Notes under the pieces: generated by a model
Databases searched by the model: none
Told to the model about the DNA's origin: nothing
What the model saw: the letters and a program-made list of their open reading frames with translations, nothing else
In this document: positions 12,305-13,614 of the stretch, one piece after another
Numbering within the stretch: position 1 is the stretch's first letter
Layout: every line of letters begins with the position of its first letter
Translations under genes and position numbers: made by a program
Source of the DNA: a virus
Lineage: Duplodnaviria; Heunggongvirae; Uroviricota; Caudoviricetes
Virus record (IMG/VR): IMGVR_UViG_3300029911_000006
Length of the DNA: 29,042 nt
Reading direction: 5' to 3' (one strand)

Positions 12305-13075
12305 CTAAGCTCCGGCAGCGTGGCTGTGAACATGGGTTCCCTCGTTGAGCATCTGGTTGAATGAGGCGAGAATGGCTTGAGCATCCTGTTCCTCTACCAT
12401 GAGATTACTCAGATAGAGAGACTGAACGTCGATGAACTTTTGCAAGCAAGTCCGGCACCGGGTGTCCTCGTTGGTCAGATGGGGGACACGGAGACCTTGG
12501 AAGCGAGACGCCAGCTTGCAACTGAGGAGCGTGGTGGTCTTCAGGGCTTCCTTCGCCCATTCGACCTGCGTGTTGATGCGGTCGCGAGTATTCAGCTTGG
12601 CACGCTTCTCCCGGTGGTTCTTCTCCTGCGAGTCCTTACGCTTGGCAGAGCAAGCAGGGCAATACCGCTTGCGGGAGGCAGTGGGGATGAGCGTGGGGCA
12701 CGCGATGCAAGGCTTCATGGAGTCAGCGTCACGCTTCTCCCGGCACTTCTTCCCGATGCGCTTGTAGTGTTCAACAGGCTCGGCGTTGCACTCGTGGCAG
12801 AGACGTTCCTTCGCCGCAGTCTTATGGCTGCTGTACCACTTGTTCCGTGAGTCGGCATCGACAAATACAAAACTGGGTTCAGGACGGATAGCTTTGCTGG
12901 GGGCCTTGTAGGCACTGCGGATGACGACGGAGCGTCCCGGCTCTTCCTTACCAAGGCGAAGCAGCAACTTTTCCTTGGCGATGTCGATGCTGTCTTCTTG
13001 TACATCCACCATGTACCGACGAGCACGCCCGTCTGCAACCTCATCCTCATAGTAAAATGAGACACGAAAAATCAT
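12305..13075 (-). CDS. hypothetical Cys-rich protein, 256 aa
   Basis: ORF track; several CxxC pairs; ATGA overlap with the next gene. Confidence 0.5.
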   Translation of the reverse strand: MIFRVSFYYEDEVADGRARRYMVDVQEDSIDIAKEKLLLRLGKEEPGRSVVIRSAYKAPSKAIRPEPSFVFVDADSRNKWYSSHKTAAKERLCHECNAEPVEHYKRIGKKCREKRDADSMKPCIACPTLIPTASRKRYCPACSAKRKDSQEKNHREKRAKLNTRDRINTQVEWAKEALKTTTLLSCKLASRFQGLRVPHLTNEDTRCRTCLQKFIDVQSLYLSNLMVEEQDAQAILASFNQMLNEGTHVHSHAAGA

Positions 13076-13614
13076 AATAGACTCCCTTCAGATTGTCGGG
13101 CTCCGACCTGTTGTGTCTGGCGGGGTCTCCTGATGATTGCTTGTATTTCCTCCAAGGATTTTGCGTCGAGTATCAAGAGGGCACGGTTGTACCTGTCCCT
13201 GATACCTTGTTCACTTTTGGGTAGAGTATGAATCCGCTTCATGTTGATTGTAACATCCACCCGTTTCAGTCTACGGGAAGCTTCCCCCTGCCACGCCCGG
13301 ACGATGAAGTCAACATAGACTTCCTTCTCAAGCTTGCGGCGAGTCACTCCGTCCACGATGTTGGCTACGACCGGGCCAAATTGTTCGAGGATGTAGGCGA
13401 GGGTGTATTCCGTGTCTTCTACCACGTCATGGAGCACGGCAGCGGACATAAACTCTTCGCGGGTGACGGGGATTGGACTTCGGTCGTACTCTTCACCCGC
13501 AGCCAGCATCACCACAAAGGCGTGGAGGATAGCAGGGTAGCCCTGCTTATCCAGCATACCTGCGAAAGCTGATGTGGCTAACCGGATTGCTTTCTCTAAT
13601 ATACCTGTACTCAT
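13072..13614 (-). CDS. HD-domain phosphohydrolase resembling the RelA/SpoT (p)ppGpp hydrolase domain (small alarmone hydrolase-like)
   Basis: ...YPAILHAFVVMLAAG...AAVLHDVVEDTEYT... HD motif; start at MSTGIL (13614), 8 nt downstream of TATACT; track ORF 13072-13653. Confidence 0.6.
   Translation of the reverse strand: MSTGILEKAIRLATSAFAGMLDKQGYPAILHAFVVMLAAGEEYDRSPIPVTREEFMSAAVLHDVVEDTEYTLAYILEQFGPVVANIVDGVTRRKLEKEVYVDFIVRAWQGEASRRLKRVDVTINMKRIHTLPKSEQGIRDRYNRALLILDAKSLEEIQAIIRRPRQTQQVGARQSEGSLL

Follow-up and report, generated by a model that had tools for sequence, protein, structure and literature searches.

The DNA analysed here is a stretch of 29,042 nucleotides from a virus of the Caudoviricetes (IMG/VR record IMGVR_UViG_3300029911_000006), the whole of which we call the window. 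A gene on its minus strand encodes an HD-domain protein that is securely a member of the RSH hydrolase superfamily and a stand-alone small alarmone hydrolase (SAH). The explanation that best fits the data, and which we hold with moderate confidence, is that this protein lies nearest to the Aph1/PbcSpo group of SAHs, cleaves 3'-pyrophosphorylated adenosines and clears the products of RSH-type toxins during infection. The gene is as follows (aa, amino acids):

13072..13614, minus strand: HD hydrolase gene; 180-aa single domain, RSH-type HD 3'-pyrophosphohydrolase (small alarmone hydrolase, Aph1/PbcSpo-like)

Because the homologues all begin MST/MS-(I)LEKAI, the ATG that yields the 180-aa protein is the likely start; an alternative in-frame TTG at 13653 would give 193 aa (+13 residues). 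The motif LHDVVEDT occupies residues 61–68, and an earlier reading made from the letters alone (the sequence-only reading) had likened the domain that contains it to SpoT, RelA and Mesh1. This likeness was borne out, since all significant matches to solved structures, by sequence and by fold, were to Rel, SpoT, Mesh1 or SAH proteins. The Pfam HD_4 profile (PF13328), which that reading had suggested as a check, matched with 35.3 bits against a gathering score of 27.2 (E 1.1e-8). The generic Pfam HD model was sub-threshold, PHROG 990 ("metal-dependent phosphohydrolase") matched at 8e-24, and SpoT/RelA matches in NCBIfam were sub-threshold only. HD_4/HD was the sole domain found in the Pfam scan and no synthetase domain was present, as in the definition of an SAH; the protein is assigned to this type because it is a single domain of 180 aa with no synthetase domain.

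PDB sequences that matched the HD protein with E below about 0.03 were RSH hydrolases. The best match was 7SMG, Aph1 of Bacteroides caccae (E 5.7e-11, residues 4–135 aligned), followed by SpoT, Rel, Mesh1 and SAHs. When 16 homologues were aligned, no variation was seen in the metal ligands H31, H62, D63 and D120, the catalytic pair E66-D67, K117, N124 or the C-terminal Y142; throughout the family E66-D67, K117 and N124 serve in the cleavage of a 3'-pyrophosphate from a nucleotide. The residues of the HD motif, on whose conservation the sequence-only reading had staked its proposal, are among the invariant ones. H31, H62, D63, D120, E66, D67, K117 and N124 are each present in 180–186 of the 186 sequences of a larger alignment, which comprises Aph1 and 185 collected proteins. 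An AlphaFold2 model built with the 16-sequence alignment has an all-alpha HD fold (predicted local distance difference test score, pLDDT, 91.1; predicted template-modelling score, pTM, 0.85). When this model was compared with the PDB by Foldseek, the top match was 7smg_A, with a template-modelling (TM) score of 0.87 normalised on Aph1 and a root-mean-square deviation of 2.7 Å, and the top 48 matches were all RSH hydrolases, with Mesh1, SpoT, Rel and SAH structures coming after Aph1. Aph1 is therefore the best solved match by both sequence and fold, and it shares with the HD protein a stand-alone HD domain of about 150 aa, an association with phages and the same metal and catalytic residues.

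The residues at the base-recognition positions point in the same direction. The Aph family was defined by a search with the last 53 residues of Aph1 (Y90–E143) and has a six-residue signature in Aph1, namely D24, R96, D116, R119, K133 and Y134 (Ahmad et al. 2023, PMC10083569). In the same study, D24-K25-A26 of Aph1 were found to occupy the place of the guanine-binding R43-R44-S45 of Thermus Rel (TtRel), whose T153 also hydrogen-bonds guanine, and the double substitution D24R+R119A led Aph1 to gain ppGpp cleavage. We recovered Aph1 residues 6–145 from HMMER output, and the letters at the cited positions agree with the paper's numbering. The signature positions correspond as follows:

Aph1 D24: D22 in the HD protein
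Aph1 R96: R106 in the HD protein
Aph1 D116: K126 in the HD protein
Aph1 R119: R127 in the HD protein
Aph1 K133: R141 in the HD protein
Aph1 Y134: Y142 in the HD protein

Five of the six positions are common to the two proteins or conservatively replaced (D, R, R, K→R, Y), and the equivalence of D22 and R127 to Aph1 D24 and R119 was the same in three independent alignments. Across the 186-sequence alignment, Aph1 positions 24/119/134 are D/R/Y in 137 sequences, and R/T/T in the Rel/SpoT-like controls, which are weak matches of the first search. The K133 column of this alignment holds 124 R versus 36 K, so R141 is the commoner state and a conservative one. In a ten-sequence alignment, DK(Q/A/G)G stands against the RRSG of Rel-like sequences, and in the loop NM-KRI (HD protein), NMDITRL (Aph1) and NSDVRRL (the SAH of Salmonella phage PVP-SE1) stand against NM-RTL (Rel-like). 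These residues suggest 3'-pyrophosphorylated adenosines as the substrates in place of (p)ppGpp: (p)ppApp and perhaps also tRNA with a pyrophosphorylated CCA end; a preference for adenine through D22 and R127 would follow from the mutagenesis of Aph1. We class the HD protein as Aph1/PbcSpo-like, an SAH predicted to prefer adenosine.

Most whole-sequence comparisons place the protein on the Aph side as well. An emulated jackhmmer search seeded with Aph1 Y90–E143 reached the HD protein at iteration 3 (E 1.7e-7) and again at iteration 4 (E 1.5e-11), and retrieved none of about 24 Rel-like controls; it was run over 186 sequences with Z = 2.5e8, in a database pre-selected by similarity to the HD protein. 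The 16-sequence family profile scores Aph1 at 154.8 bits versus 87.7 bits for the best Rel (67 bits apart), and the HD protein as a single sequence scores Aph1 at 46 bits versus 41.8 bits for the (p)ppGpp hydrolases. In a neighbour-joining tree, a rough distance tree without bootstrap that we use in support only, the smallest clade that holds both the HD protein and Aph1 (89 sequences) is free of Rel-type sequences.

What such an enzyme would do can be laid out by analogy with its family. It would remove the 3'-pyrophosphate from nucleotides in a Mn2+/Mg2+-dependent reaction, with adenine held by D22-K23-Q24 and R127 where (p)ppGpp hydrolases use Arg-Arg-Ser and Thr. Free (p)ppApp would be converted to ADP/ATP and pyrophosphate, and the enzyme might also act on tRNA whose terminal adenosine has received a 3'-pyrophosphate from a toxSAS enzyme, removing that group. 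In infection, it would remove the products of host or competitor (p)ppApp synthetases of the FaRel/Tas1/Apk type and of tRNA pyrophosphokinases of the CapRel/FaRel2/PhRel type; left in place, these products would deplete ATP or stop translation, aborting infection. The gene would be expressed from a conserved minus-strand block in translational coupling with a Cys-rich protein, described below.

There is a precedent for such a role. Stand-alone SAHs of the Salmonella phages PVP-SE1 (PbcSpo) and SSU5 (PaSpo) neutralise FaRel, FaRel2, PhRel, PhRel2 and CapRel, the full set of five toxSAS toxins tested in E. coli, and it was proposed that phages bypass alarmone-based abortive infection via such hydrolases (Jimmy et al. 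2020, PMC7229694). Like the HD protein, these are stand-alone phage HD hydrolases with no adjacent toxin. The PVP-SE1 protein, gp220, resembles Aph1 as our protein does: it has a DKGG motif and R...KY, and 99% of its length aligns with Aph1 at 39% identity. Its direct similarity to the HD protein is weak (38% over 65 residues). The sequence-only reading had proposed that the phage suppresses the stringent response or an alarmone-based defence such as toxSAS. The defence half of this proposal gains from the PVP-SE1 and SSU5 precedent, while suppression of the stringent response is less likely because the base-recognition residues are of the Aph1 family type and not those of a (p)ppGpp hydrolase.

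Several observations weigh against the assignment to the Aph group or the role derived from it. A profile of the seven-member subclade of the HD protein ties Aph1 (77.6 bits) with Mycobacterium Rel (77.5 bits), and the subclade retains the Rel-like motifs VDGVTRR and LPxEEQ as well as a Rel-length loop after N124. Aph1 D116 is not conserved (K126 in the HD protein) and the I117-T118 insertion of Aph1 is absent; R127 corresponds to Aph1 R119 by alignment only, because the loop of the HD protein is two residues shorter. The model of the HD protein has an extra C-terminal helix at residues 154–162 (block pLDDT 96 falling to 71) followed by a disordered tail, both lacking in Aph1, which is a compact eight-helix protomer without a C-terminal helix 9, an absence that has been tied to its tetramer (PMC10083569). 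F17, A28 and A32 set the HD lineage apart at three non-catalytic positions, which in nearly all relatives are H, Y and P (Aph1 H19, Y30 and HP→HA). Two of the 12 Aph homologues tested in PMC10083569 were also modestly active on ppGpp, and the biological role proposed for the HD enzyme is drawn wholly by analogy.

The differing features of the loop are widely shared. The I117-T118 insertion is absent from the HD protein and from 128 of 186 relatives, making the short-loop form the majority, and D116 is present in only 16 of the 129 sequences that carry the other five signature positions; the short-loop clade may be the sister group of the assayed Aph enzymes. Closer relatives, on the related contigs L012–L014, keep the canonical H, Y and P at the three non-catalytic positions. 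Further differences from Aph1 are an identity of only about 29%, a 10-residue insertion after helix 2 and the setting of the gene: Aph1 is a prophage immunity protein, whereas the HD gene lies in a DNA and nucleotide-metabolism region of a giant phage and is without neighbours of the Apk2/Tis1 toxin-immunity type.

The same Rel-like features bear on a different explanation, that the HD protein is a (p)ppGpp hydrolase which lowers host (p)ppGpp, keeps transcription, translation and nucleotide synthesis going and suppresses the stringent response. We consider this unlikely. Its catalytic core is common to Rel, SpoT and Mesh1, with the same fold, metal ligands, ED dyad and K...D...N motif. The tie between Mycobacterium Rel and Aph1 in the subclade profile and the Rel length of the loop after N124 also speak for it, as do the facts that some Aph homologues and PaSAH cleave both nucleotides and that GenBank annotators often label phage homologues as ppGpp pyrophosphohydrolases. 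However, the guanine-recognition residues of TtRel (R43, R44, S45 and T153) are not kept but give way to D22, K23, Q24 and R127, while all the Rel/SpoT-like controls in the alignment carry R and T there. Moreover, the Aph-distinguishing C-terminal half retrieves the HD protein and not those controls. Beyond the exchange of Arg-Arg-Ser and Thr for Asp-Lys-Gln and Arg, the protein differs from Rel and SpoT in having no synthetase or regulatory domains, and from Rel, SpoT and Mesh1 alike in a C-terminal K/R-Y motif of the Aph type.

A further explanation, which we also judge improbable, shifts the main substrate from free nucleotides to RNA. The HD enzyme would strip the 3'-pyrophosphate left by CapRel/FaRel2/PhRel-type toxins from the tRNA CCA end as part of a phage tRNA-maintenance toolkit, with the Cys-rich protein as a possible RNA-binding partner. 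ATfaRel (of the PbcSpo family) and MESH1 do remove 3'-pyrophosphate from tRNA CCA ends and restore aminoacylation of FaRel2-modified tRNA, and phage SAHs rescue from all tRNA-targeting toxSAS. Because the modified tRNA residue is itself a 3'-pyrophosphorylated adenosine, an adenine-type pocket fits the free nucleotide and the tRNA alike. The genomic setting adds seven tRNA genes in the window, an RNA ligase a few kb upstream of the HD gene in related phages (joined in contig L001 by a Thg1-like gene), and four CxxC pairs with a long basic helix in the conserved partner. However, this 256-aa partner has no recognisable RNA-binding fold, the window contains no RNA ligase or Thg1, and action on RNA overlaps with the (p)ppApp reading rather than excluding it. 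The CapRel chemistry also corrects the sequence-only reading, which had counted CapRel among the makers of pppApp and ppGpp: CapRel pyrophosphorylates tRNA CCA ends and makes no alarmones, and SAHs can reverse that modification.

The gene is embedded in a conserved block, whose members in the window, apart from the HD gene itself, are listed here together with an insert between them:

12305..13075, minus strand: Cys-rich protein, 256 aa; no assigned function
14386..15885, minus strand: 499-aa protein, upstream member of the block; PHROG 1915 (unknown) on the N-terminus; no Pfam match
13722..14396, plus strand: 224-aa gene between the 499-aa and HD genes; PHROG 4776 (unknown), 1.6e-67

The order 499-aa orthologue, HD_4 gene, Cys-rich gene was found in all six contexts for which DNA was at hand (the window and contigs L001, L009, L012, L013 and L014), with the HD_4 gene directly ahead of the Cys-rich gene and identities of 40–77% across the three genes. 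The orthologues of the 499-aa protein that precede the HD gene in related contigs are 439–545 aa long (45–53% identity by BLASTP in L009, L012, L013 and L014). A seventh context, one ENA contig without DNA, has the same layout, with an upstream 102-aa gene for which no Pfam match is recorded. The start codon of the 256-aa gene overlaps the stop codon of the HD gene (ATGA, within TTATGA). This overlap, together with the sequence GAAGGGAG upstream of the 256-aa gene, suggests that the two genes are translationally coupled. A promoter and terminator scan around the HD locus found sites no more numerous than in shuffled sequence.

Features of the 256-aa protein are four CxxC pairs, all of them invariant, together with a long basic helix and a HAAG motif conserved at the C terminus. 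Its homologues number only 16; all come from metagenomes, several of them on contigs of 100–435 kb. The protein had no match in Pfam, PHROG or NCBIfam. Its AlphaFold2 model (pLDDT 80.7, pTM 0.44) gave no Foldseek match in the PDB with E < 0.05, and its N-terminal domain of ~60 aa weakly resembles small ribosomal and phage DNA-binding proteins. We speculate, very tentatively, that the ~490-aa protein, the HD hydrolase and the coupled Cys-rich zinc-ribbon protein form a three-gene module that erases the CapRel/FaRel2-type 3'-pyrophosphate on tRNA. The Cys-rich protein would deliver the tRNA, and the module would work alongside the phage tRNA array and, in relatives, RNA ligase and Thg1-like enzymes. 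If true, this would be a new multi-component phage system for tRNA repair and counter-defence.

The 224-aa gene is a less constant neighbour. It is present in the window, L001, L013 and the ENA contig and absent from L009, L012 and L014. We considered it as a functional partner of the HD gene and, given its absence from three of the seven contexts, treated it as a variable insert that is probably outside the hydrolase function. The protein is 63% identical to its L001 neighbour. Of the 110 phage records with homologues, 105 are mycobacteriophages (about 40% identity), which is unusual for a gene of a giant environmental phage. A region of Bacillus phage Booya annotated as "ADP-ribosyltransferase enzymatic component" matches the C-terminal half of the 224-aa protein at 31% identity, and by eye this half shows an R / S-x-T / E-x-E pattern (FTVYRG, LSWTL, GESEVIIL). 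No Pfam match and no PDB sequence match were found for it, and from these sequence features it is possibly an ADP-ribosyltransferase.

In L014 (positions 1335–3435) the 545-aa orthologue of the 499-aa protein carries an inserted ART-PolyVal domain, 29% identical to the ART-PolyVal open reading frame (ORF) of the window, and a gene with a Pfam Tad4 match precedes that orthologue. This insertion and the Tad4 match suggest that the neighbourhood of the HD gene accumulates host-takeover or anti-defence genes.

The block also bears on whether the HD enzyme serves as immunity protein or antitoxin for a (p)ppApp-synthesising toxin of the phage itself, as Aph1 does with the MuF toxin Apk2 or ATfaRel with FaRel. 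This would suit Aph1 and ATfaRel, the characterised Aph1/PbcSpo members, both of which have that role, as well as the position of the HD gene in a conserved block with two proteins lacking assigned function; the DNA examined is, besides, 29 kb of a roughly 430-kb genome. We nevertheless think it very unlikely. A RelA_SpoT synthetase domain (PF04607) was matched by neither gene flanking the HD gene nor by any of the about 40 window ORFs scanned with Pfam, within these 29 kb of ~430 kb. The 256-aa partner was rejected as a hidden (p)ppApp synthetase toxin on finding no Pfam, PHROG or NCBIfam domain, no PDB sequence match and no Foldseek match below E 0.05, and its model shows no nucleotidyltransferase fold. 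For the 499-aa protein, judged by sequence search only, no synthetase domain was found, and NCBIfam gave no match. A local toxin-immunity pair is disfavoured because the neighbours are unlike RSH synthetases and no such domain occurs in the ORFs scanned, and most Aph homologues do not lie beside toxins (PMC10083569). Finally, action on some other phosphorylated adenosine metabolite (NADPH, PAPS, a pGpp-like compound or a defence signalling nucleotide), in the manner of Mesh1 and some orphan SAHs, is most unlikely: Mesh1 structures with NADPH and PAPS are among the Foldseek matches, and an orphan bacterial SAH is described as metabolically promiscuous (PMC9765508), but the HD protein is nearer Aph1 than Mesh1 by both sequence and fold.

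The sequence-only reading had paired the HD enzyme with a MazG protein as two alarmone-degrading enzymes in one early region. Two genes for NTP-pyrophosphatase-type domains were found in the window:

3127..3537, minus strand: MazG-like all-alpha NTP pyrophosphohydrolase, 136 aa
16723..17688, minus strand: dATP/dGTP diphosphohydrolase-like N-terminal domain fused to an HNH endonuclease, 321 aa

The MazG gene is real: its product matches Pfam MazG (PF03819) with 24.5 bits (gathering score 22) and PHROG 229 ("MazG-like pyrophosphatase") at 1e-25. That it degrades (p)ppGpp is a weak claim. Although the 136-aa protein matches MazG profiles, among solved structures its sequence is closest to RS21-C6/dCTP pyrophosphatase 1 (E about 5e-4), and the cyanophage MazG, the sole phage MazG tested biochemically, neither bound nor cleaved (p)ppGpp and preferred dGTP and dCTP (PMC6850273). 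Nor are the two genes adjacent: they are about 9.5 kb apart, MazG lying downstream on the same strand. Between them are a split ligase with an inserted cassette, small ORFs, one HNH gene and seven tRNA genes. Nothing in the sequence marks the region as early. We rejected the HD and MazG genes as a unit, given this distance and the synteny of the relatives, which ties the HD gene to a dGTP_diPhyd_N gene and an NAD ligase instead.

The 321-aa fusion gene is 3.1 kb upstream of the HD gene; its product matches PF18909 with 34.9 bits (gathering score 27) and, on residues 162–297, the HNH endonuclease family PHROG 5046. In L001 and L008, dGTP_diPhyd_N occurs upstream of the HD gene as a stand-alone gene (150–158 aa). 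Because these relatives have the hydrolase domain alone, an endonuclease appears to have been inserted into, or fused with, the gene in the window. The order dGTP-diphosphohydrolase-like gene, HD gene and NAD ligase, with other genes between, recurs in related phages. We found no evidence that the MazG or PF18909 protein acts with the HD enzyme, and nucleotide-pool editing is the more economical reading for both.

Other enzymes occur upstream of the HD gene in related giant phages. In related contigs (L001 1609–7917 and L012 198–1409) an RNA ligase (PF09414) lies a few kb upstream, accompanied in L001 by genes for a Thg1-like and a PspA/IM30 protein; the window has none of these three kinds of gene.

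Relatives of the HD protein are numerous, with 29,499 found by profile search at E <= 1e-3 in a 50%-clustered protein universe. Aph1-like genes occur in 538 of 50,697 GenBank phage records, 458 of them near full length, and their carriers include Pseudomonas, Vibrio, Aeromonas, Streptococcus and Klebsiella phages and the 440-kb Salicola phage SCTP-2. The enzyme family, its occurrence in phages and its anti-toxSAS effect are already published, as is the idea of an SAH together with MazG: a 2025 paper on phage Adele (PMC12846349) treats the two as possible modulators of (p)ppGpp and (p)ppApp, with caution on MazG. The novelty here is modest and lies in the D/R versus R/T reading of specificity for the short-loop clade and in the conserved three-gene block with its Cys-rich partner in giant phages. 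The pairing of the HD gene with this uncharacterised protein poses a small question, and none of these findings alters current understanding.

If the adenosine preference is confirmed, giant environmental phages would be a further group known to carry (p)ppApp-type hydrolases. Support would also be gained for the idea that 3'-pyrophosphorylating toxins (toxSAS, Apk/Tas1-like) threaten phages often enough in nature for a dedicated eraser to be maintained. For annotation, Aph-type and Rel-type enzymes among such genes, which usually bear the label "metal-dependent phosphohydrolase" or "ppGpp pyrophosphohydrolase", can be told apart at two positions: the residue preceding K/R-x-G (D or R, respectively) and the third residue beyond the catalytic N (R or T).

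The source of the window is a very large environmental phage known only from metagenomes. The identical HD protein is found in public metagenome assemblies, on contigs of up to 431,749 bp, a 63% identical relative lies on contigs of 405–435 kb, and a nucleotide search with positions 12000–16000 found no match among GenBank phages. Nearly all genes of the window are on the minus strand. It carries three HNH and one GIY-YIG homing endonuclease, a virion-protein PHROG, an NAD-dependent DNA ligase and seven tRNA genes:

3603-4322, plus strand: HNH homing-endonuclease-type gene
16723-17688, minus strand: HNH homing-endonuclease-type gene
18370-19026, minus strand: HNH homing-endonuclease-type gene
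9317-9994, plus strand: GIY-YIG homing-endonuclease-type gene
4261-6695, minus strand: tRNA array of seven genes, Ile-TAT, Leu-TAA, Met-CAT, Ser-TGA, Ser-CGA, Ser-GCT and Ser-GGA

Several of the tRNA genes are 85–95 nt long, and Rfam at the gathering score confirms four of the seven. The 3' end of the HNH ORF at 3603–4322 overlaps the tRNA-Ile gene. The plus-strand genes of this otherwise minus-strand region are four in number (this HNH gene, the GIY-YIG gene, the ART-PolyVal gene and the 224-aa gene), and all of them have the look of mobile inserts.

The NAD-dependent DNA ligase is split into a 130-aa piece (11809–12201, minus strand), made up of the Ia domain and the start of the adenylation domain, and a 624-aa piece (7452–9326, minus strand), with an insert at about 9327–11808. 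Relative to the intact L001 orthologue (721 aa), the interruption lies between residues 97 and 99, immediately ahead of the KxDG motif. On the opposite strand, the 2.5-kb insert carries a GIY-YIG/NUMOD3 homing endonuclease (9317–9994, plus strand) and an ART-PolyVal ADP-ribosyltransferase gene (10258–11055, plus strand). A group I intron was considered as the cause of the split and rejected, as Rfam at gathering thresholds gave tRNAs only. One relative, on the ENA contig, also has a split ligase, with a different break point.

Farther along the window (21366–25002, minus strand) are three adjacent transporter- or envelope-like genes, encoding an ABC-transporter ATPase (292 aa), a permease-like protein with a sub-threshold BPD_transp_1 match (283 aa) and a 613-aa protein with a C-terminal OmpA peptidoglycan-binding domain.

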